This document shows positions 16,328 through 35,061 of a stretch of DNA of 35,061 bases, piece after piece. Position 1 is the stretch's first letter. The number at the start of each line of letters is the position of its first letter. The notes below the pieces were generated by a model. That model searched no databases and was not told where the DNA came from. It saw only the letters and a program-made list of their open reading frames with translations. The stretch spans positions 1-35,061 of the IMG/VR virus record IMGVR_UViG_2654587570_000013; one strand, 5' to 3'. Made by a program: the position numbers and the translations under genes. Origin of the DNA: a virus. Lineage: Duplodnaviria > Heunggongvirae > Uroviricota > Caudoviricetes.

Positions 16328-19300
16328 TTACCCTAATTTAGCTTCAATTGCAGCAAGACGTTCACGAAGAAGTTTATTTTCTTCGCTCATTTCTTGGACC
16401 GCTTTAATTAAAAGCGCGTTCACTGCGGAGTTTGAAATTGTTAAAATTTCTTCTGGGTTATCAAAACCACCAATTTTTGCGGTTTTAACAGCTTCCGGTA
16501 ATACCTCTTGTAAATCCTGTGCGATAATACCAATCTCATGACCTATAACTTCTCGGTCATTAAGAGATTTAACTTTATCGTAGGTTTTAACTTTGAGTTT
16601 ATTTACCTTATCCACCGCATTTTCTTCGTAATCTTCAACATTAATTTTCAGACGACGATCGGAACGAATATAAACATCGTTAAAGTTACCATTACCAGGA
16701 CAGTAAAAAGTACCATCATGATGGAACTCGAATACAGCTTGAGGGTGACCAGCCGCTGGCGATGCCTCCGCAGATCCAACACGAATAATTGCTTGCCCCC
16801 AATTTTGAGGAACACGACGCATACCAAAATCGACGGCAGTTGTATACCCTTGATTGGTGATTAAACTTCTTCCTTTGATAATCGGATAATAACAGTCCGG
16901 TGAAACATAGCCATGATCGACAAATATTGGCGCTTCTAAGCCCCATTGATCACCCCAACCTCCAGATTGGCTAGCAGTCCAACGTTCACCATGAACATAG
17001 AATCGAACGTTATTGACATGAGTCATTTCGACACCTTTTGGACTTAGCGCGATATCCCCCGCGTTTGTAATATTGATAGCAGCATTAGTAGCATAGCTAT
17101 AGAACGCTAATCCATTATCAGCACCACCTTTACCGATATACCAGTTGTTATTATCAGCACAAGTACCCAACAAATATATCGACGAATCGCCCGTTTCGGC
17201 ATTCATGATGATTGCGTCAGAACCACGATTAACTTTAAGTTTCCCGAAGAAGGTGTTTTTAATGGTATTATCACCCAATCGTTCAAATTCGGCTAAAAAT
17301 CCTTTTGAGTCACGAAGGCTTAAAACGTTATTTCGACCTGTATTGCTTGCCCCCCAATGGACGAGTTCCATATAGTCCATAGATTGACGAGAACCAGCTT
17401 TAAAGAAAAGATTGTCCTCAAGACGAGTGCTACCATCAATTCCAAGATGCAAACAGCGTGCGGTCGCTGTGCCACCTAGATCTAATCCACCACCAGCAAA
17501 ATCATAACTAAATGGTCTACGGCTATTCCACCCACCGAAAGAATCACCGTGATCTGTGGAAAGAATATGGAAGCTAGTTCCATCATTACGGAACATCAAA
17601 CCATAATTACCACCTTTAACAGCCAAACGAGCATTTTCAGATAATGCAACTTCGCTATTCATTACAATTTTCTGGCCTTTACCACCAGTAATATGTAATT
17701 CACCATCTTCAATCAGGTTTATCGAGTTTTGACCGTTATCATTCCACCAAATAAAATCTTTGGTTGTTCCATCACCGAAGCCAAACCAGCCATTACGAAC
17801 ATCTTGTCCAGTGCGATAATCCATGAAATTAAAATGGCTTGATTCGTTTGGTCCTCGACGAATATCAATACCAGAATTTCCACCAACACCACCATCCAAT
17901 GTTAATCTCTTGACATGTAACCCGGTTGTTGCTGTCAGCAATAATTCCTGATTTGTATCTTCGTATCCAGTAGCAAGACGATATGCGTTATCATCAACTG
18001 TCTCATGCCAGATAGTGGCAGGAGCAGAACTACGGAAGCGACGCAACATTTTCTTAGCATTTGTTTGCTGTTCGTTCAAATGCTCAATGTCATATTGGCC
18101 TTGATGGTTTCCAGCAAAATTTAACGTTCCACGGTTGCTAAAGTTATTGAACGATGAAATGTTAAGAGCATCAAAAATTTCATCTGCAACAGGTTTTTCA
18201 CCGCCCAGGTATTCAGGAGTATCCAACAGGTTTAAAGAAACACCACCGGAAGAAACTTGATATTCTGCTAAAACAAATCCTGTATGTGCACCATAGTAAG
18301 CGTAAAGATCATAATTGTCGCCATCGGTTGGAATAGCGCAAAAATGTTGTTCATAATGCCAAATAGTATAATACGCATTGAATACAACACCTTTCGGGCT
18401 ATTGTTGCCGCATCGAATCACCAATTCGATAATATTGGCTTGTCCATTCATCCCGACGTTATAACCGTTACCACCAACTAAGCGGATCTTAGCACTACGA
18501 CCGTGTTGCTGTGGCATTGTCAAAGTGCCTAGTTTAAACCAACCACCCTCGATCCCAAAATTAAGCGTCTTCTGGAACAGTCGGTCAATTTCTGCTTTCG
18601 AATATGCGCCAATTTCGGCAGGAGTAGGTTTATCACCTTCATGATACATGCGGTGAGAATATGCCAAATGACCCAATTCATCATAGCCGTATGTTCTTAC
18701 CGTATGAACCGGATTAGACCCATAAGTGAACTCAAAGCCACGAGCATGATTAACACCAGATGGATGCGGAACATGCAAGATCATTGCAATATGACCCGCC
18801 AGGTCATTCATGCGGAATGCACCAAAGTAATCAAGATTACGCGCATTTGGATCATCAAAATAGTTTGCGGTCTTAGACAGCAAATAACCATCAGTATAAG
18901 TGTTTACGTGTTTTTTGATGTACTTGCCATCAGCAGATCCATCGGCTGCATCAATACGGCTTTCTAAGCGTGCCAATTCAGAATCAGTGTAAGACTTGTT
19001 ATTGTCAACTTTGCTATGAATTGCTGTATTTTTGGCTTCAACATCACGGGTTAATGCTGCGACGTTATCCGCTGCCTCTTGCTTATTGGCTGCAATCACA
19101 CCAGTAAGGTTATTGTAGGTGTCAGTTAACTGATTTTCCGCATAGACTTTATTTGCTGCGATAGTGCGGTCAGTTTCTGTCTTAATCAGATCAACTTTGT
19201 CATTGATTGCTTTGTCATTACTTGCGATTGTCGCGTCGGTACGGGATTTAATATCATCAACTTTTTTATTGATGCGGGTATCCAGTTCCTGGGTTGCTAC

Positions 19301-19738
19301 AGCAGCCGCATTTTTATTAGCGTTGATGGTATCCGACAATTCAGCTTTAACACCAGCAAGGTCGGAAGCAGCTTTATTTTTATTGGCCTCGATTGTCGCG
19401 TCGGTTTCGCGTTTAATTACATCAACTTTATTGTTAATTTCTGCGTGATTTGCTGCGATGGTTGCATCAGTAGTTTGTTTAATTTCATCTACTTTAGCGT
19501 GAATATTGCGGTCATTTACTGCAATTGTGCTATCCAGTTCTTGTTTGTTAGCATCAACTTTAGATTCTAGTGCCGCGTGAGTTTCAGGAGAAACAGAGAT
19601 TTGAACTACTTCATGATCTCGGTCTTTGGTAAAAATAACATGGTCTTTAAGGTTGATTGCTACCTCACCGACCTGTAATTGTTCCGGCGTTGGTTTTTTG
19701 CCAGAAACATTTGTTCGTTTAAATTGGATCGACTGCAT
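16328..19738 (-). CDS. tail fibre with C-terminal intramolecular chaperone (peptidase S74) domain (1136 aa)
   Basis: N-terminus IQFKRTNVSGKKPTPEQLQVGEVAINL is a fibre N-terminal motif. There are five or more helical repeats of VD.IK..TDATIAAN. The last 111 aa start SDRRLKINVEDY... and end in a coiled coil, the S74 auto-cleaving chaperone signature, with predicted cleavage before Ser1026 (about nt 16663). Confidence 0.85.
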   Translation of the reverse strand: MQSIQFKRTNVSGKKPTPEQLQVGEVAINLKDHVIFTKDRDHEVVQISVSPETHAALESKVDANKQELDSTIAVNDRNIHAKVDEIKQTTDATIAANHAEINNKVDVIKRETDATIEANKNKAASDLAGVKAELSDTINANKNAAAVATQELDTRINKKVDDIKSRTDATIASNDKAINDKVDLIKTETDRTIAANKVYAENQLTDTYNNLTGVIAANKQEAADNVAALTRDVEAKNTAIHSKVDNNKSYTDSELARLESRIDAADGSADGKYIKKHVNTYTDGYLLSKTANYFDDPNARNLDYFGAFRMNDLAGHIAMILHVPHPSGVNHARGFEFTYGSNPVHTVRTYGYDELGHLAYSHRMYHEGDKPTPAEIGAYSKAEIDRLFQKTLNFGIEGGWFKLGTLTMPQQHGRSAKIRLVGGNGYNVGMNGQANIIELVIRCGNNSPKGVVFNAYYTIWHYEQHFCAIPTDGDNYDLYAYYGAHTGFVLAEYQVSSGGVSLNLLDTPEYLGGEKPVADEIFDALNISSFNNFSNRGTLNFAGNHQGQYDIEHLNEQQTNAKKMLRRFRSSAPATIWHETVDDNAYRLATGYEDTNQELLLTATTGLHVKRLTLDGGVGGNSGIDIRRGPNESSHFNFMDYRTGQDVRNGWFGFGDGTTKDFIWWNDNGQNSINLIEDGELHITGGKGQKIVMNSEVALSENARLAVKGGNYGLMFRNDGTSFHILSTDHGDSFGGWNSRRPFSYDFAGGGLDLGGTATARCLHLGIDGSTRLEDNLFFKAGSRQSMDYMELVHWGASNTGRNNVLSLRDSKGFLAEFERLGDNTIKNTFFGKLKVNRGSDAIIMNAETGDSSIYLLGTCADNNNWYIGKGGADNGLAFYSYATNAAINITNAGDIALSPKGVEMTHVNNVRFYVHGERWTASQSGGWGDQWGLEAPIFVDHGYVSPDCYYPIIKGRSLITNQGYTTAVDFGMRRVPQNWGQAIIRVGSAEASPAAGHPQAVFEFHHDGTFYCPGNGNFNDVYIRSDRRLKINVEDYEENAVDKVNKLKVKTYDKVKSLNDREVIGHEIGIIAQDLQEVLPEAVKTAKIGGFDNPEEILTISNSAVNALLIKAVQEMSEENKLLRERLAAIEAKLG

Positions 19739-25693: not shown

Positions 25694-27601
25694 TTAGAAC
25701 GATGTTACCCAACTACGGCCTCTATTTGGAGGTCTGACGATGTTTTGACGTTGCGGTCGTGTGATTGGCTTAGTTTCTTCGATTTGCTCGTTAGATTGCG
25801 ATTTAGGAGCTTTTACGGGTTCTTCGACAACGCGGTTTAAGCTGTCTTTCATTGCAATGAGTTTATCCCATGACATTTTTGAAAGGACGTAGCGAGAAGC
25901 CGCATAGCTATAAACCAGACAGTCGAGAGCCTCGTTTCGGGTACTACCTGGATTTTTCACCCAACGCACGCCAGTAGTAGTACGCTTGATGGATTCACTC
26001 AAAAGCTGATCGAGATAATCATCAGGAACGGTTTCTGATATCTCTAAACCAATATGAGGATTGTCTTTCAGGTTTCTAACCAGCATTTCACGAACAGCAG
26101 ATTTACCAACGTTAACACCCAGCATAAGCAATTCATGACCACCTGTGCGGGTAGGTTTAACCGGAATCACTGGAGCATTACCAGATGAACTACCTTTGAT
26201 CGCGTGTAGGTTCTTCCACTTACCGCAAATACGGTATCCGGCTTGAGTGAATCGACCGTTCGATGTATCAAGGAAGCTGGCGAGCATAGGAACACGATCA
26301 CCCGATACAGTAGTAAATTTGGTTTTATGGAAGTTGATTAATCTATCCCATACAGGGGATTCATATCGTTCACAGTTATGATCGTAAAAGCTGCGGTGAT
26401 CCAGAATGTAAACCTTATCTTTCGCTACACCTAAGATGGTAGTTTCTGCGCGATCTAATTGCTGGTCAGTACCCGCACATAAGAAAATCACGTCATCAGG
26501 GATATTCTCGATAGAAACATCTGTTTTGAGTTGTTCCAGTTCATTTGCTTCTACTGCCGTGTCCTGATCGTCGTATACCTTGCCTAACACGGTGTTAAAA
26601 AAGGATTGTAAATCAAAGGATTGCCACGCATGACTAAAATCAACCACACAAGCGCGAATCGTGCTGAAAGGTGAATACAGACGACTGATCCAGAATCCTG
26701 CTACCTCACTTTCACGGGTTGCTCTCCACTCTCCTTGTGCTACTGCCCTGATTCGTTCCCCTTCTGTCCATGCGTTCTTACAGTGGGGGCAAATATAACG
26801 AGCGGTATCAGGATCGGGTAAGTTCTTACCATCAATGTTACGCCATTCAAATTGAACGTTTTCCCACTCGATCACCTGGTGTCTACCGCAATGAGGACAC
26901 GGAACAAAAAACATACGCATATCGCTTGATAACCATTGCTGGTTAATGCTTCCCAGCTTACTGGTCGGGGTACTGGATACGACTAATCGACCTTCATCGC
27001 CAAAGGTAGTTAAACGGTTAGCAGCCAGTGCCACCGGATCACCTTCTTCTGAGGCTGTGGCAGCATCAATTTCGTCAAGTAATCCAACCTTTGCGGTCTT
27101 ACCACGTAGGGTTGATGGGCTGGTAAGCGATACCATGTACAGGAAGTGATTCGTTTTTAACTGGAGTTGGTTGTTGTTGTTAACCGCGTTGCGATCATTC
27201 TTGTCTGTAACCACGTCTTTCAATGCATCACATGCTTCGATAGACGGTCGGATCTTACCCGCGAGATATTGAGACATTTCTTTAGCGGTTGATTGTCCGA
27301 TAATCATATTGCATGGATCGTTAGCCATCTGGTTAAACAGGATACCGTTTAGGATGGTAGTTTTTCCGATCTGCGCACTGGTCATCAGTACATACTTTTT
27401 CTTATTCTCAAGGAAAGGAGCATCAATCATGCCTTTCTGGAATGACAGCAATTTAACTTTATCCCCCGCTTGAGGACCATCTACCAGCACCATATTCGCT
27501 TCGCACCATTCAGACGGAAGGAGCTTAGGCGGTGGAGTGATATATTTTGCGGCATTTTTAAGAATCTTTTTTAATTTTGCCTTATTAGAAATCAGTTTCA
27601 T
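25694..27601 (-). CDS. terL: terminase large subunit, lambda GpA-type (635 aa)
   Basis: Walker [10 protein letters not shown] and Walker B GLLDEID. The paired Cys motifs CPHCGRHQ...[10 protein letters not shown] are typical of GpA-family terminases. The size (635 aa) fits lambda gpA. Confidence 0.9.
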
Positions 27602-27644
27602 GTAATTACCCTCATTACGAAATATGAAGGTATTTATTAAATTA

Positions 27645-27688: not shown

Positions 27689-28285
27689 ATGCTAATTAAT
27701 CAGCAAGAAAGAGATGAATTAGCCTTGTCTTGTACCGATCATGAATATCGTTTACCCGTTAAGCATAAGCATTTAAAAACCGATTACACAACATCTGGGT
27801 TTAGCCGTGAGGAAGCGAAAGAGATTTTAATAGAATTTTACCGTGATAATGGCTATAGAGACGTTCATAACTTCTTTAAGAAGCATCGCACATCACAGAC
27901 AGAGTTTCAGCGAGTCCGTGAGTGGTTTGATTTTGATATCAAGCGTTATTATCGCATTGATGACGGTCCTATCTATCGGTTGCAGTGGAAGCCGATCAGG
28001 GAAGTGTTGAAACAGAAGAGATTGAATCACGCAATTACACGCTATCGTAACGAGGCTTTCAAGAAAGGCTATGGTGATACAAGGGAACTATTCGTTGAAC
28101 TCGCTAACGTGAAGTACAGCCACTATTACAACGATCCTAAAGGGTTCTTTGAAGTGCTTCGCAAGGTTGATATAAGTCGGGGTACATATTATTCACGGTT
28201 GAAGAAGTACGGGATTAAGGCAGAGTTCTTTATGTCGGTTGACGATGGAGAACTTTTTCCGATAAAATGTAAGTCCTCTAAATAA
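27689..28285 (+). CDS. tandem-HTH-module protein (198 aa)
   Basis: AAGGAGG RBS. It contains two copies of the module also found singly in the 77-aa and 59-aa proteins (FYRDNGY..FFKK...FQRVREWF and [27 protein letters not shown]). Confidence 0.6.
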
Positions 28286-28314
28286 AGGTGAACATTCACT
28301 TTAATTTGGAGAAA

Positions 28315-28548
28315 ATGACTATGACTACTAAAGCTACTCGCGGTCGCCCTACCCGTTTTAATCGTGAACAGATGGCTGATATTGCCTACGCTTACTATAC
28401 AGCGGATCGTGGTAAGGAAGCGAAAGAACAGATTCTTAGTGAACATGGGATCTCAATCGCCCAATTCTATAAGAATATGAAGAAGTTAGACATTAAATTC
28501 TATGTTCAGATCGGTGATGGTCAGATCGTAGAAGCAACAGGTTTTTGA
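28315..28548 (+). CDS. small HTH DNA-binding protein (77 aa; alternative start 28321)
   Basis: ATRGRPTRFNREQMADIAYAYY...GISIAQFYKNMKKLDIK is paralogous to the 31655..31834 product. The GGAG position favours ATG 28321. Confidence 0.6.
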   Translation: MTMTTKATRGRPTRFNREQMADIAYAYYTADRGKEAKEQILSEHGISIAQFYKNMKKLDIKFYVQIGDGQIVEATGF

Positions 28549-29935: not shown

Positions 29936-30394
29936 TTACAGCATATCTAAGCCTTCATCATGGCCGTAGAAGCCACCGTGAGAAGAGAAACAGATTGGTG
30001 CGTAGTCGTCGTCATCTTCGTCTTGTTCATCTTGTTCTGGGGCTTCCTGAGCGGGTTGTTTGCCGTAATCAGCCATAATCTGGTCAAGATCAGCGATCCC
30101 ATAGTAAGAGCCTAAATCAACGTCATATTCACGAACATCAAACGGCAGGTCATCACGAACAATAATTGCTGGAATATCGTTGTATTGAAGACGACCTTCA
30201 TCAGTAAGACAGTCGATGATCACAGTAGGACGACCATTTCGTTTTAAAGCGTAGAAAGCAGTTGAGTAGTTGGAGTCTTCGGAATGACGAATGATGTTAT
30301 AACCACGATTAGCGAAAACTTCTAGCATATGGAAGTTACCATAGTTTTCAGAGTCCAGACCCAGAAGTACGAAAGGAGTTTTAGTATTGATCAT
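29936..30394 (-). CDS. hypothetical early protein with acidic C-terminal tract (152 aa from ATG 30394)
   Basis: AGAGGA RBS before MINTKTPF. The N-terminal alpha/beta-like domain is followed by EAPEQDEQDEDDDDY. It is the first gene leftward of the ORF-free control region. Confidence 0.6.
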   Translation of the reverse strand: MINTKTPFVLLGLDSENYGNFHMLEVFANRGYNIIRHSEDSNYSTAFYALKRNGRPTVIIDCLTDEGRLQYNDIPAIIVRDDLPFDVREYDVDLGSYYGIADLDQIMADYGKQPAQEAPEQDEQDEDDDDYAPICFSSHGGFYGHDEGLDML

Positions 30395-30593
30395 AGTGGT
30401 ATCCTCTAAAAGAAAGTGAATCAAACAAATTACACTAGTATTTATACGAGAAAAAAATATCTATTTGGAAGTGATTGGATTCAGTCGGCTTCGCCTCCTT
30501 CATGATTTTGATTAAATCATCATCAAAACGAAGGAGTATCTTTAGAATATAAGAATCTTTCTTTTGGAGAAATAATAATCAGGAAGCAATTTG

Positions 30594-30837
30594 GCAACCG
30601 AAGGTTGCAATCCCGAAGGGATACCAATACCTTTCTAGAAAGTGATTGTTACTCACTTCGTTCGTTTACTAGAATCAGTTAGTAACTAGCATTAAATCCC
30701 TTTCTAAGAAAATCCTTTCAAAAGTGAGTGAACGCCGTAGGCGTGAACGTGAGCGAAGCGAACTATCCAATCCCTTTCGAATCCTGCTTGCAGGTCTTAG
30801 AAGGTGTTGATGGGCGCTTCGCGCACGGCTACGCCGT
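30594..30837. repeat. field of GC-clamped mini-hairpins with 3-nt loops
   Basis: GCAACC-GAA-GGTTGC (30594-30608), ATCCC-GAA-GGGAT (30610-30622), ACGCC-GTA-GGCGT (30732-30744), GC-GAA-GC (30753-30759), GCGC-TTC-GCGC (30814-30824) and ACGGC-TAC-GCCGT (30825-30837). A perfect palindrome CTTTCTAGAAAG sits at 30631-30642. Confidence 0.7.
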
Positions 30838-30967
30838 ATTCTTTTTGCGAGATCTTTCTTGAACGTAGTGAGAGAAAACGAGCAAAAAGGAGAACGTTAG
30901 TTCGAATTTTATATTCTATGGTCTGTGGGGTGAAATGTTTTTCAAGATCATACACTTATGAGATTGA

Positions 30968-31092
30968 AGTGTAGGGTTAGTGTAGGTGTGTAGGTTTCAT
31001 AGTGTAGGTTTGAGGGTGTTATAGTGTAGGTTTACTGGCTAGTGTAGTGTAGGCCAATCCCTTTAAAGTGTAGGTTTGTAGTGTAGGGTTTT
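30968..31092 (+). repeat. iteron array: 8 direct copies of (A)GTGTAGG(TTT)
   Basis: GTGTAGG starts at 30969, 30980, 30988, 31002, 31024, 31047, 31068 and 31081, all in the same orientation. Three copies are exactly AGTGTAGGTTT. Confidence 0.85.
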
Positions 31093-31093
31093 C

Positions 31094-31110
31094 ATCAAAA
31101 ATTTTGATAG
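31094..31110. repeat. AT-rich palindrome ATCAAAAATTTTGAT; 15-mer CAAAAATTTTGATAG repeated at 31245-31259
   Basis: The 15-nt palindrome is perfect. The identical 15-mer occurs at 31096-31110 and 31245-31259. Confidence 0.7.
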
Positions 31111-31195
31111 AAAATTCTTGTATATTATTTAATCAGAAAATCACCAAAAATCGCGGTAACTGCATGATTTAAAAGGAATGGTCAAAAGGTCACCG

Positions 31196-31204
31196 TGCTA
31201 TAAT
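31196..31204 (+). promoter_or_regulatory. candidate extended -10 promoter (TGcTATAAT)
   Basis: TGCTATAAT is a perfect extended -10 element. No good -35 is present. Confidence 0.4.
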
Positions 31205-31284
31205 AGGTTATAAAGGTTGATAATCGTTATCCGCCATTTTCACACAAAAATTTTGATAGTCTTTTCTCGTTTAGGTCAAGTGTA

Positions 31285-31313
31285 TTGACAACTGTCAAGG
31301 ATTATTTTATACT
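31285..31313 (+). promoter_or_regulatory. strong sigma70-type promoter (rightward)
   Basis: TTGACA (31285-31290), a 17-nt spacer, then TATACT (31308-31313). Confidence 0.65.
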
Positions 31314-31447
31314 TTTTATCGCTGGTGGGGGTTGAAATTTTCTAAACAGCCCCCATATAGATGATAAGCAAGATTTTTCGTGTATAAATACATGCATGAA
31401 ATGATTGTTCACTTCTGAAAATCCCCTGATTCACTGTTAACACATAC

Positions 31448-31475
31448 AGCACTGGTTAAACACACAGTGCTTTTT
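31448..31475 (+). terminator. intrinsic terminator inside the rightward leader
   Basis: AGCACTG / 10-nt loop / CAGTGCT followed by TTTT, about 155 nt downstream of the predicted start. Confidence 0.65.
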
Positions 31476-31533
31476 CGATTAAATAATGTACGAAATGATT
31501 AATTATTAATCTTCTCTTTAGCAATTCGTGCTC

Positions 31534-31559
31534 CCACTGATCGGATATACAGTGGTTTT
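31534..31559 (+). terminator. second hairpin with U-tract in the leader
   Basis: CCACTG / 10-nt loop / CAGTGG followed by TTTT. It has the same CACTG...CAGTG design as the first. Confidence 0.45.
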
Positions 31560-31654
31560 ACAGGGTTTTCTGAAATGACTTTTATAAATAGAAGTATCGA
31601 GGGCGAAAAGCTCTTTTTATTGTCCTTATTAATCCACATTTGAGGAATCTACTT

Positions 31655-31834
31655 ATGGCTAGACCTGTTAAGTTTACTCGTGAAATGATTGTTGATATTG
31701 CTAAACGCTTTTATGGCGATACTGAACGAGGCGGCGAGAATTTCTTTAAGAAGGAAGGAATTGATAGAAGCGGATTCTATAAGTTAATGAAGAAATACGA
31801 AATTCAGATAAAGATTAACGTTCAAGTTTGTTAA
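31655..31834 (+). CDS. small HTH DNA-binding protein (59 aa)
   Basis: GAGGA RBS 8 nt before ATG 31655. MARPVKFTREMIVDIAKRFY...GIDRSGFYKLMKKYEIQ is paralogous to the 28315..28548 product. Confidence 0.6.
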   Translation: MARPVKFTREMIVDIAKRFYGDTERGGENFFKKEGIDRSGFYKLMKKYEIQIKINVQVC

Positions 31835-31950
31835 TCCACTTTCACTGAGAATTATATGATGGCTTTAAAAATAAAAAGCCTCCCTTGTTGCAGCAAAGGA
31901 GGCTTGAAATGAACAATTAAAACTAACACAGCATTCAGGAGTATTTATAA

Positions 31951-32946
31951 ATGAAAAATTCTAAGCGCATCACCTTCAACCTGTTTATTAAATCCAACGG
32001 CAAACTGAACATTACCGTCATGGAAGGTAAAGCAAGCAAACAAGACAAATCCTTTGAAGTAGTATCCGGTAAGACTCTGACCGAAATGCGTCAGAATGCT
32101 GGCATCAAAGACGGTGCTGAATGGCAGATCACTAACCGTTTCGACAAACGTCACGTTAAACCTACACTGGTAGAAGGTGAATCCGTTTATTGCTTCGCTC
32201 GTGCTGTTAAAGCCGATGAAACTTACTATCTCGCTGTTGTTAAAACTGCTTCCGGCTTCCGTGCTGTAATGCATCACAAGAGCAAGCGTAACGAATACGG
32301 CGTAGAGACCCAGGAAGTCGCAAAACGCTTCCGTACTGTTGCTACCGAATCCACTGTAAAGGATGTTTCTGGTACTGTTAACACCGCTAAAGGCGGTTCC
32401 TTCTACAACCACGCATTACAGGTTACTTCCTCCTTCTTCTGCAAAAAAGAAGCACAGAAAGAAGTTTCTCCGGTAGTAGTTGAAGAAGTTAAAGAAGAAG
32501 TTGCAGTGGTTGAATCTTCCGAAGTTGAAGCACTGAAAGCACGCATTGCTGAACTGGAAGCTGAAAACGCATCTCTGAAAGCTGAACTGGCAGCACAGGA
32601 AACCACTTTCGAAGTAGCAGCGGTTGAAGTTGAAGCAGTTGAAGAAAAATCCATTGATGAAGAACTGGAAGAACTCCTTAACTATCGCTGGGGTGTTGTT
32701 GCAGAAGTAGAACAAGAAGTTGCTCCGGTAGTTGTTCCGGTTGAAGTTGAAAAAGAATCCGCACCTGTTACTAACTTTGAATCCCTGCGCAATAACTTTA
32801 TGGCTAAATTCAAAACCACTTGGGAAGATACCGAAGAAGAACAAGAAGAGATTGAAGTAAACGAAGACGAGATCCGCGAAGCACAGATGGCACTGCATGA
32901 CGCTATCTACGACACCAACTACAGCGCCTACGCATACGCAGCTTAA
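31951..32946 (+). CDS. abundant-type acidic coiled-coil protein of unknown function (331 aa)
   Basis: AGGAG RBS. A basic N-terminal ~170 aa domain is followed by a coiled coil (ALKARIAELEAENASLKAELAAQE) and acidic V/E-rich repeats. Extreme codon optimisation leaves a single TTA/CTA/TCA-type codon (the TTA at 32416) across 31951-32946, keeping the antisense frame open. Confidence 0.75.
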   Translation: MKNSKRITFNLFIKSNGKLNITVMEGKASKQDKSFEVVSGKTLTEMRQNAGIKDGAEWQITNRFDKRHVKPTLVEGESVYCFARAVKADETYYLAVVKTASGFRAVMHHKSKRNEYGVETQEVAKRFRTVATESTVKDVSGTVNTAKGGSFYNHALQVTSSFFCKKEAQKEVSPVVVEEVKEEVAVVESSEVEALKARIAELEAENASLKAELAAQETTFEVAAVEVEAVEEKSIDEELEELLNYRWGVVAEVEQEVAPVVVPVEVEKESAPVTNFESLRNNFMAKFKTTWEDTEEEQEEIEVNEDEIREAQMALHDAIYDTNYSAYAYAA

Positions 32947-32961
32947 TAGAGGGGTGAATCT

Positions 32962-33204
32962 ATGATGAATCAAAACAAAGAATTTCTGGGTAATCTGATG
33001 TTAGAAATTACCAAAATGAAAGAAAGAATGGTAGCGATGGAATCAGAGATTAAAACTCTTAAAGCTGATAATAAGGCGTTGAGAAAGTCCTTAAAGCTGA
33101 TTGATGAGACTAATGCGGTTATGATGGATCATGTATTCCCTGAGTGGCGAAATGAAACTAAACCTACACAACATAAGAAACTTACACTTCGAATTGTTGC
33201 ATAA
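32962..33204 (+). CDS. small coiled-coil protein (80 aa)
   Basis: GAGGGG RBS. Heptad-rich MKERMVAMESEIKTLKADNKALRKSLKL. Confidence 0.6.
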   Translation: MMNQNKEFLGNLMLEITKMKERMVAMESEIKTLKADNKALRKSLKLIDETNAVMMDHVFPEWRNETKPTQHKKLTLRIVA

Positions 33205-33904: not shown

Positions 33905-34456
33905 TTAAGACACATCAAATTCATCGTCTTCTTCTGGTTCTTGTTCCGGTTCATCCATTAATGGTAATTCTTCTTCCTCGTCTTCTCCTAAATCCGCATT
34001 TTCGAACAAGTCCCCTACTTCATTTAAACGACGCTCGATGATCTCCCTTAGCTTATTCTTCAATGTTTTCTGGTCGGTGGCAGATTCAAGAATTTCTAAA
34101 GCGTCGATTGTGGCGATCTGCAAAATAGTCTGTTTCACCTTCCCGCAATATTCCGCTAGTTCCTGCTCAACATACCCGACCGGAATCAGGAGGTTCATTG
34201 CTTCCTGGTTCTCTCGTTCGGCTGCATCTGCTAATGCTCTCTCACGGCGTAATTTCTCTACGTCGATTTGTTCCTTGACAGTAGTTTCCCTGAGTGGACT
34301 GATGATATTTTTTGCTACCCACTCGGTCCCCTCTTTGAGTGGCACGCGGCGGGTATTGGTATTGTAAGGTAGTCCCCTTTCTAACCATTTCTTAGCGGCG
34401 TTAATTGTATAGCCGTATAAGCGGGAAATTTCTGTAAGGGTTAATTCTTCTTTCAT
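33905..34456 (-). CDS. terS: terminase small subunit, lambda Nu1-like (183 aa)
   Basis: AAGGAGG RBS. The N-terminal winged-HTH LTLTEISRLYGYTINAAKKWLERGLP and the VEKLRRE...ADAAERE helix resemble Nu1 as I remember it. The C-terminal tail is acidic. Confidence 0.6.
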   Translation of the reverse strand: MKEELTLTEISRLYGYTINAAKKWLERGLPYNTNTRRVPLKEGTEWVAKNIISPLRETTVKEQIDVEKLRRERALADAAERENQEAMNLLIPVGYVEQELAEYCGKVKQTILQIATIDALEILESATDQKTLKNKLREIIERRLNEVGDLFENADLGEDEEEELPLMDEPEQEPEEDDEFDVS

Positions 34457-34755
34457 CCGGTTATCCTCCTTTAAATTTGCGTAAAATTATTTATCTGATC
34501 TGCGCATTCAGGAGAGCGCCTAAAACGCTTTATAACGAAGGGAAAGATCGAGGCATGGAAAGGGATTGGCGTGTGTTAATAGTCGCGTAGCGACCGCGCT
34601 GGTGGGCTGCACTGCACCTGTTTTGAAATCTCACACGCACATCAAATACCGGGGTGCCGAAAACTCCCTTTATTTCACCCGTGGAACAGTACCTTTTGAT
34701 TTTGTCAAGTCTTTTTTATAAATAATCGAAAATATTTTTCACACGAGGGCAAATC

Positions 34756-35061
34756 ATGAAGACTAAAGATATTAAGATTGAATTTGAAACTGTTGATGAC
34801 GTTCGGGAACATCGCATTGATTCTACTGGCTGCATCTTCCAGCTTACTAACTCCCCTATTGGATTGATTATCTATGTAGCAGAAGATGACGTGTACGCTA
34901 TATGGGATGGACAGGATGAGTTTAAAGGCGGGAATAGCCATCTGATCAATACTCATGAGGGATTTGATCCGACTCCTGTCTGTATGCTTGCTTATCACGT
35001 AACACTGGATGAACTACCGGAAGCAAGCGCGCGTATCCGTAGAATGAAAGACATTAAGTGA
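34756..35061 (+). CDS. hypothetical protein (101 aa)
   Basis: GAGGG RBS 6 nt upstream. The ORF ends exactly at the window edge. It is preferred over the overlapping minus-strand ORF 34705..34998, which lacks an RBS. Confidence 0.55.
   Translation: MKTKDIKIEFETVDDVREHRIDSTGCIFQLTNSPIGLIIYVAEDDVYAIWDGQDEFKGGNSHLINTHEGFDPTPVCMLAYHVTLDELPEASARIRRMKDIK

Follow-up and report, generated by a model that had tools for sequence, protein, structure and literature searches.

A conserved family of short asymmetric boxes in the origin-like control region of an Escherichia coli prophage, with a candidate reader protein

The stretch of DNA analysed here (IMG/VR record IMGVR_UViG_2654587570_000013, positions 1 to 35,061; hereafter the window, 35,061 bp in length) is an integrated E. 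coli prophage. Relatives were found by megablast in 64 of 5426 complete E. coli genomes, chromosomal in every case, and in one of these strains a truncated cytosine permease gene directly follows the position equivalent to 35061. Our subject is a family of short boxes with the core AAT[C/A/T][C/A]CTT[T/C]C, commonly followed by TAG or TAA, which an initial annotation had noticed in a noncoding control region and again upstream of the gene for a Nu1-like small terminase subunit (terS). This box family is a real, conserved signal of the replication and control region, and the protein that reads it can be named at candidate level only. The surrounding genes, including a 7.4-kb arm of orphan genes beyond the terL region, are laid out as follows:

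996-2690: serine integrase
minus strand: lysis, tail, head and portal genes, together with the gpA-type large terminase gene terL (25694-27601)
27689-28285, plus strand: 198-amino-acid (198-aa) protein made of two tandem units, each of three helices and a beta-hairpin; a candidate reader of the boxes, a role that we only infer
left part of the orphan arm: the 198-aa gene, an 86-aa gene (both plus strand), a Rha-type gene and a 162-aa open reading frame (ORF; both minus strand)
30425-31639: noncoding control region, 1.2 kb
right part of the orphan arm: 64-aa, 331-aa and 80-aa ORFs (plus strand), two small membrane ORFs, a 183-aa gene (minus strand) and a 101-aa ORF
31951-32946, plus strand: the 331-aa ORF, swapped together with the iteron type; presumed iteron-binding initiator
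33905-34456, minus strand: the 183-aa gene, a Nu1-like small terminase candidate, 6.3 kb from terL

The boxes and the iteron array are distributed over the window in this way:

30467-30478, minus strand: box CCAATCACTTCC, 20 nt upstream of the TATAAATA element (30446-30439) of the leftward 152/162-aa gene
30624-30635, plus strand: box CCAATACCTTTC, CCAAT class, 1 nt after a hairpin pair
30638-30649, minus strand: box ACAATCACTTTC, right arm of an imperfect palindrome
30693-30719, plus strand: tandem stand-alone boxes TAAATCCCTTTC and AAAATCCTTTC, 15 bp from start to start
30767-30778, plus strand: exact box CCAATCCCTTTC, left half of an inverted assembly of hairpins and box beside the iterons
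30796-30809, minus strand: degenerate box CAACACCTTCTAAG, opposing the box at 30767
30965-31090, plus strand: iteron array with eight copies of GTGTAGG (unit AGTGTAGGTTT), followed by an AT-rich stretch
31054-31065, plus strand: box CCAATCCCTTTA, within the iteron array
34558-34569, minus strand: exact box CCAATCCCTTTC upstream of terS, with TTATAAAG 22 nt downstream of it

The sequences quoted in the initial annotation are all where it had placed them: CCAATCCCTTTC at 30767-30778 on the plus strand and 34558-34569 on the minus strand, CCAATCCCTTT at 31054-31064, AAATCCCTTTC at 30694-30704 and AAAATCCTTTC at 30709-30719. It was equally right that CCAATCCCTTT is embedded among iterons, that one copy lies about 100 nt upstream of the Nu1-like gene (102-113 nt from its ATG at 34456) and that a head-to-head palindrome, albeit imperfect, occupies 30624-30648. 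Three copies had escaped it (30467-30478, 30638-30649 and the degenerate 30796-30809, all on the minus strand), and CAATCCC at 30608-30614, counted there as a box variant, is in fact the 5' arm of the hairpin ATCCC-GAA-GGGAT (30610-30622). The boxes at 30624-30635 and 30638-30649 form the head-to-head pair, centred on CTAG, with a spacer of 3 nt, or 9 nt in some relatives. Eight of the nine boxes are 3-4 kb from terS, in a region that bears iterons and resembles an origin.

Statistically, the case for the boxes differs from the one first made for them. The statement that an exact 12-mer should not occur twice in 35 kb does not hold, as Markov-1 simulations give 92-143 recurring 12-mers and the window contains 352; with chance recurrence this common, what supports the boxes is that they cluster and that relatives conserve them, and not that one word recurs. 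The clustering is pronounced. AATMMCTTYC occurs 8 times in the window against 0.98 expected, five times within 30467-30778 and once at 34558, and CCAATCCCTTTC at two or fewer mismatches has 11 sites against 3.1 expected, a count equalled in none of 100 shuffles. A looser 9-mer class, counted in four diverged genomes (the window, a second E. coli prophage, and relatives from Salmonella and Proteus), has 3.7-6.9 sites per kb within the control region and 0.3-0.7 per kb elsewhere. A literature search for the box sequence returned unrelated primers only.

Conservation was followed through IMG/VR by peptide-seeded scans, which gave 46 loci from about 30 contigs, and by look-ups of homologous proteins, which contributed further prophages of identical gene order from E. 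coli, Salmonella and Proteus. A noncoding region of 1.1-1.7 kb, running from a 150-160-aa gene to a small helix-turn-helix (HTH) gene, is kept in more than 30 relatives, those of Salmonella and Proteus among them, and nearly all of these relatives carry boxes at equivalent places of it. In the Salmonella and Proteus prophages the flanking noncoding DNA can no longer be aligned, and the boxes persist, so that the family is conserved over three genera. The box at 30467-30478 is retained in E. coli relatives as CCAATCACTTCC or CCAATTCCTTTC; the 15-bp tandem recurs in Salmonella and Proteus; and the degenerate box at 30796-30809 has a good box as its counterpart in type-B relatives (CCAATTACTTCTAG) and in Salmonella (CCAATACCTTCTAA). 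Even the box within the iteron array has a Proteus equivalent, ATCCCTTTAAAG, standing amid unrelated CTAGGGATG iterons.

This last case illustrates a more general behaviour. According to the alignments, the segment 30728-31090 is replaced in relatives, which have unrelated repeat arrays in its place, and at least six repeat types can be told apart: AGTGTAGGTTT, CAGGGGCAAAA, ACGGGGAT, CTAGGGATG, GTTATAGGACA and TCACGGACAAAA. The 331-aa and 80-aa ORFs are present at 84-100% identity (93-100% for the 331-aa protein) in 11 of 11 type-A loci and are missing from type-B and type-C loci, except for two partial 30% hits of the 331-aa protein. Because the iteron type covaries with the 331-aa ORF, the repeats behave as iterons and the 331-aa protein as their reader; the linkage of 30728-31090 with 31951-33204, followed over loci L002-L063, holds despite some 900 bp of independently varying DNA between them. 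Through all six types of swap the box family stays constant, which sets the boxes apart from the iterons, and the 331-aa protein is not their reader. Judged from its sequence, the noncoding region is a putative replication origin with exchangeable cassettes, and the boxes, together with the hairpins described below, are the only cis elements kept throughout the family while initiators are exchanged.

Two classes of box can be distinguished, namely a CCAAT class linked to hairpins and an (A/T)AAAT class that stands alone and forms the 15-bp tandems. Boxes of the CCAAT class lie 2-8 nt 3' of one or two mini-hairpins with G-N-A loops on the same strand. The hairpins of the window, and the units that they form with boxes, are the following:

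30487-30495, minus strand: mini-hairpin GGC-GAA-GCC
30594-30622, plus strand: mini-hairpin pair GCAACC-GAA-GGTTGC and ATCCC-GAA-GGGAT, directly 5' of the box at 30624
30732-30759, plus strand: mini-hairpins ACGCC-GTA-GGCGT and GCGAAGC, 5' of the box at 30767
30814-30837, minus strand: mini-hairpins GCGC-GAA-GCGC and ACGGC-GTA-GCCGT, 5' of the degenerate box on the same strand
34583-34595, minus strand: hairpin GTCGC-TAC-GCGAC on the box strand (GTA on the plus strand), kept in E. coli and Salmonella
30594-30635 and 30732-30778, plus strand, and 30837-30796 and 30495-30467, minus strand: units of hairpin and box

The initial annotation had suggested a composite site of box and hairpin. The association is real, with the restriction that it is directional and concerns a subclass: of the 59 boxes in ten lineages, 15 are preceded by a same-sense GNA hairpin whose end is 1-20 nt away on the 5' side, four have a hairpin on the 3' side, two have one of opposite sense, and in no case does a box abut its hairpin. 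The box at 30467-30478 lies 8 nt 3' of its hairpin and that at 34558-34569 lies 13 nt 3' of the one at 34583-34595. The stems covary between lineages, including those of Salmonella and Proteus, with the GNA loops and the downstream box retained; the first stem of the hairpin pair, for example, appears as GCAACC/GGTTGC, GGATGC/GCATCC, GGACAC/GTGTCC, GCCCC/GGGGC or CGC/GCG. The two opposite-strand units at 30732-30778 and 30837-30796 face each other at 130-230 bp from the iterons, an arrangement that is also found in type-B relatives and in Salmonella.

We suggest, with a probability of about 0.4, that the boxes are sites for a conserved phage-encoded DNA-binding factor that organises the origin and two promoters, the 198-aa tandem-HTH protein being the candidate. 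The boxes would then be asymmetric sites of about 12-15 bp (CCAAT-NN-CTTYC, often followed by TAG), read by one family-wide factor distinct from the type-specific iteron-binding initiator, and would decorate the left half of an origin/control region of 1.2-1.7 kb. By coating them, the factor would build a nucleoprotein complex that would let the interchangeable initiator/iteron cassettes fire, and the same factor would set the activity of two flanking leftward promoters, that of the 152-aa gene and, in one sublineage, that of terS. In this model the outlying copies are placed some 35-45 bp upstream of the TATAAA elements of those two genes. Such binding, the identity of the protein and its effects on replication and transcription are what we infer here. 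The reader is most likely phage-encoded, either as the tandem-HTH protein (27689-28285) or as its single-domain paralogue (28288-28548).

Besides the enrichment and conservation of the boxes, their constancy through the iteron swaps and the near-confinement of the tandem-box pattern to this family in IMG/VR, several features speak for this reading. The 198-aa protein is the best conserved non-structural protein of the arm, with 87-96% identity within the main E. coli group, and its identity to the Proteus homologue (68%) exceeds that of TerS and TerL (55% each) and of the 162-aa protein (37%). Two single-domain ORFs are paralogous to it, those at 28288-28548 (86 aa) and 31640-31834 (64 aa); the orphan domain that they have in common, three helices and a beta-hairpin ending in D-G, thus occurs in four copies over three genes, and is restricted to these prophages. 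A Foldseek search of the PDB with the model of the 198-aa protein gave no significant hit. The boxes are asymmetric, stand in both orientations and vary in spacing (3 or 9 nt head to head, 15 bp in tandem), which fits a monomeric or bipartite reader and not a fixed dimer, the variable 3/9-nt spacer in particular being unsuited to a rigid one; that a bipartite HTH protein reads an asymmetric site is plausible. Two boxes are placed 20-22 nt upstream of TATAAA elements. The operators of the phage P1 C1 repressor are a comparable case, as they are asymmetric, single or head-to-head, and consist of one main cluster with distant copies at other promoters. The prophage boxes share this layout and differ in being invariant across regulatory alleles, mostly off promoters and in many cases tied to hairpins, and the sequences are unrelated.

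A number of observations weigh against this explanation. The boxes are unchanged even in E. coli lineages in which identity of the 198-aa protein drops to about 51%, so that no covariation points to this protein. Only two of the nine boxes are at promoter-like positions, and the region upstream of terL has no conserved box. The fixed polarity of hairpin on the 5' side and box on the 3' side is not required by a protein that reads duplex DNA, and hints at a single-stranded function; moreover, the boxes would be just as invariant if their reader were a host protein conserved in Enterobacterales. The notion of operators of some regulator, which the initial annotation had offered as its second option, comes close to our preferred explanation and fits better than terminase sites, yet it has to accommodate the small number of promoter-like boxes and their invariance with respect to the small-HTH alleles. 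Some narrower versions were discarded. Operators of an immunity repressor would not be expected to stay invariant while the 64-aa HTH alleles differ, with two of nine boxes near TATAAA; the 64-aa protein itself is 39-100% identical among relatives with identical boxes; Rha is missing from a Proteus relative; and a general promoter element is contradicted by the boxless upstream regions of terL and of the other TATAAATA elements, only two boxes being suitably placed.

The hairpins lead to the main rival scheme, possible though doubtful, in which the initiator would open the origin, GNA mini-hairpins would extrude on each strand, and a primase or primosome would read the single-stranded box and start DNA synthesis there, much as ssiA and ssiB serve RepB' in the oriV of RSF1010. 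Stems that covary in at least five lineages around fixed GNA loops are a hallmark of extra-stable DNA mini-hairpins, and GCGAAGC is kept with a 2-bp stem too short for a stable RNA stem; to this one may add the strand-specific polarity (15 same-sense against 2 opposite-sense hairpins 5' of boxes) and the opposed units beside the iterons and the AT-rich stretch. Mini-hairpins recur at priming sites and N4 promoters, being known from the G4 origin, ssiA and the N4 promoters (PMC13037366). As in G4 and N4, GNA/GNNA mini-hairpins would mark start sites of synthesis on single-stranded DNA; here, however, they occur in a double-stranded temperate phage lacking an N4-type RNA polymerase, next to a different conserved word. 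The closest parallel is the RSF1010-type oriV, which, as read from an IncQ plasmid, has iterons and then ssiB and ssiA on opposite strands, each with CCTTTC followed by a GAA- or GCA-capped hairpin; the RepB' primase makes base-specific contacts to the CCTTTC tail and contacts the first base pair of the hairpin (PMC4434180). An iteron array with an AT-rich stretch, two opposite-strand signals, a C-GNA-G-capped hairpin with a pyrimidine word, and independence of the signals from the iteron-binding protein are common to both systems. In RSF1010, however, CCTTTC abuts the 5' side of one long hairpin, whereas the prophage box follows one or two very short ones at 2-8 nt, or precedes them by 7-16 nt; about two thirds of the prophage boxes are free of hairpins, and there are several units per strand. 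The prophage encodes no RepB'-type primase or RepA helicase, and scans of the regulatory-arm proteins with Pfam, PHROG and NCBIfam detected no primase or helicase at all; the DnaG start triplet CTG stands beside the units in type A only, and at the terS copy the hairpin loop reads TAC on the strand of the box. The resemblance is striking, and the units may work like ssi signals, but with word and hairpin in another order and no primase gene in the prophage, we take it as a likeness and not as membership. It is tempting to go one step further and to regard the units of mini-hairpin and CCAAT box as a new class of strand-specific origin signal that would recruit priming or replisome loading and serve as a common socket for at least six unrelated initiator/iteron cassettes, an idea that we hold with considerable reserve. 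The same polarity of hairpin and box would suit an RNA signal, that is, an antitermination site of the nut or rrn type, with a hairpin and a boxA-like element recognised by host Nus factors, or else an element acting as antisense or anti-Shine-Dalgarno sequence. The units sit in the leaders of leftward and rightward transcription units, the boxes are unpaired in local folds, 30580-30850 folds far better than shuffled sequences (z=-5.2), and a host factor would account for the invariance across genera; but the good fold is largely one long inverted repeat, triloops on stems of 2-3 bp are weak as RNA, both box orientations occur within one short region, the window has no Rfam match, and the regulatory-arm scans found no N-like or Q-like gene. 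The box also has only 5-7 of 9 bases identical to what we take to be the boxA consensus (GCTCTTTA), and we consider an RNA signal improbable.

A host protein conserved in Enterobacterales, binding duplex boxes as an accessory factor of the origin, would likewise explain why phages of E. coli, Salmonella and Proteus have invariant boxes irrespective of phage-gene alleles, and plasmid and phage origins commonly employ host factors. Nevertheless, the box does not match the IHF consensus, nor the consensus sequences of DnaA, Fis, CRP and FNR; a wider comparison with sites of DnaA, CRP, FNR, RcsAB, NarL, sigma-E, sigma-28, the -35 element of sigma-32 and Tus gave no convincing match either. Besides, in IMG/VR the tandem-box pattern has at most chance-like hits outside the prophage family, and 50 kb of phage RB49 contain the box at background density only; we rate a host factor as improbable as an RNA signal. 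Somewhat more credit, though still little, can be given to the initial proposal that the boxes are sites of the terminase small subunit comparable to the R sites of lambda cosB, at which bound TerS would mark the start of packaging or couple replication to it. The 183-aa protein is indeed Nu1-like: it matches PHROG 57 (E=4e-15), aligns with lambda Nu1 over the full length and gives weak PDB matches to 6hn7 and 1j9i, and six of twelve family members match Pfam Phage_Nu1, below threshold (best E=1.5e-4). The lambda sites R1 and R2 (CGTTTCCKTTCT; the lambda record gives CGTTTCCGTTCT and CGTTTCCTTTCT) are pyrimidine-rich 12-mers that have 8-9 of 12 bases in common with the box and stand in both orientations, and one exact prophage copy lies between a GC-rich block (about 34640-34700, some 200 nt from the ATG, like lambda cosN) and the start of terS; the noncoding Chi site at 34598 is oriented towards this block. 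An exact copy at this place is confined to the E. coli sublineage whose TerS is 95-98% identical; the site reads CCTAGCCCTTACC in the group with 87-92% and TCCAGCCCTTTCC in Salmonella (AAATCACTTCTC is also found elsewhere), and is lost in the E. coli lineages with 80% and 55% TerS identity and in Proteus. The terS-proximal variants thus track the groups of predicted TerS recognition helix (INAAKKW, LNGGGKRW, LPAVTKW, LQAVQKW and IQAVNKW), and this site itself may be read by TerS, although its variation could equally be simple linkage. The control-region boxes, in contrast, are unchanged across lineages with all five helix variants and at 55-80% TerS identity, which makes it unlikely that TerS reads the main cluster, placed 3-4 kb from terS, away from terL and in an origin-like region. 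Near terS there is a single box with a TCTTTCCCTTCG remnant and not the R3-I1-R2-R1 array of lambda with its IHF site, the IHF consensus WATCARNNNNTTR having no match in 34457-34755 or 30425-31639; what could correspond to cosN is only a candidate block. The packaging protein is therefore probably not the reader of the boxes. Finally, the boxes might have no dedicated function and be linker sequence at module junctions, kept by frequent recombination among relatives. The homology break between iteron types is at 30727, immediately past the tandem boxes, and the E. coli relatives are highly mosaic; however, the Salmonella and Proteus boxes keep their number, order, tandem spacing and hairpin linkage where the noncoding DNA has diverged beyond alignment, and this last alternative seems to us very improbable indeed.

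We would also like to comment on the surroundings of terS. In E. coli, Salmonella and Proteus alike, terS is separated from terL by the origin region. The block at about 34640-34700 extends from E. coli to Proteus and consists of GTGTTTCG, 10-12 GC-rich nucleotides, a T-rich part and CGTGTGA..TTTTCAAAA; going by its sequence and position, it is our best candidate for a cos region. The ends of the IMG/VR contigs gave no indication of cos, since they look like provirus trimming and not like termini. Just upstream of terS (34470-34510), an inverted repeat TGCGCA...TACGCA, elsewhere TGCGTAA...TTACGCA, flanks ATAAATAA and resembles an operator that overlaps a promoter. Among GenBank phages, Escherichia phage DCP80 (PQ671644.1, L051) alone was hit by TerS, and it was also the best hit of TerL; it is a 141-kb T4-type (Tevenvirinae) record in which the terminase genes are 22 kb apart; no boxes lie upstream of its Nu1-like gene. 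Since a gpA-type terminase gene and this siphovirus family's Nu1-like gene stand together in it, the record is possibly chimeric, and we set it aside as uninformative.

Promoter-like elements are frequent in the same part of the prophage. The T4 late-promoter word TATAAATA occurs nine times in the window against 2.6 expected (658, 3797, 29645, 30439, 31383, 31583, 31942, 33890 and 34717), always in intergenic DNA; eight of the copies point into the adjacent downstream gene, and that at 31942 (minus strand) points back into the end of the 64-aa gene. The related ATAAATAC is present at 27630, 27656 and 4910, and close variants of TATAAATA stand ahead of three genes, terS, terL and that of the 198-aa protein. 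We found no gp55-like factor. At 31329-31349 on the plus strand, GTTGAAA-N13-CCCCATAT is a near-perfect look-alike of a heat-shock (sigma-32) promoter, also present in locus L039, and lies just downstream of a strong sigma-70-like promoter (31285-31313, TTGACA-17-TATACT) and a Chi site. The control region of the Proteus relative (L054, about 1107-1125) contains in TGGCACGCATCTTGCT a perfect look-alike of a sigma-54 -24/-12 promoter, which has no equivalent in the window. The 162-aa ORF (29936-30424) to the left of the control region has probably been listed with a wrong TTG start, as the alignment with relatives starts at residue 9-12; from the ATG at 30394, which has a GAGGA ribosome-binding site, a protein of 152 aa would result.

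Chi sites are likewise overrepresented, with eight in the window against 0.48 expected (1689, 13900, 16162, 17490, 22117 and 33572 on the minus strand, 31321 and 34598 on the plus strand). The plus-strand sites both fall in noncoding DNA right of the iterons; of the six minus-strand sites, five lie left of them. This polarity is what might be expected of bidirectional replication from about 31 kb, and is confounded with gene orientation.

Other observations concern contacts with T-even-like phages. Distant blastn comparison returned solely a 75-nt match to RB49-like phages and one gene fragment. The former is a noncoding element (30507-30584) that is matched, at about 80% identity, by two copies standing in tandem between ORF164c and ORF165c of RB49-type T4-like phages (L001 1501-1575 and 1652-1724), and this intergenic spacer is the only place in 50 kb of RB49 with a cluster of GNA mini-hairpins. 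The PeSL cassettes of RB49-type phages resemble the prophage elements in being short conserved noncoding cassettes at junctions of shuffled modules, and differ from them in being sigma-70 promoters with G/C-tract stem-loops (PMC2839356). At the nucleotide level, the 101-aa ORF (34756-35061) is 73% identical to a gene found in JSE- and RB49-type phages. The 1136-aa tail fibre (16328-19738) matches distal long-tail-fibre families, which we take to be of the T4 gp37 type. Together, the matches of the tail fibre and the 101-aa ORF indicate repeated exchange with T-even-like phages. Searches for closer kin were negative: megablast found no close relatives among GenBank phages and PLSDB plasmids, and a scan of genome contigs with TerS peptides yielded no confirmed relative. 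Neither tRNAs nor Rfam families (at gathering or E<5 thresholds) were detected in the window.

Overall, the prophage family to which the window belongs is common in E. coli and extends to Salmonella and Proteus; it lacks a close relative in culture, and no replication, repressor or antitermination genes can be recognised in it. As the sole cis elements kept throughout the family, the boxes and hairpins are the best handle on how these phages replicate and switch on. Should a single HTH protein simply use them as operators, this would be a routine result; a single-stranded mode of reading would bring a double-stranded temperate phage into the small group of systems with known ssi-type signals.

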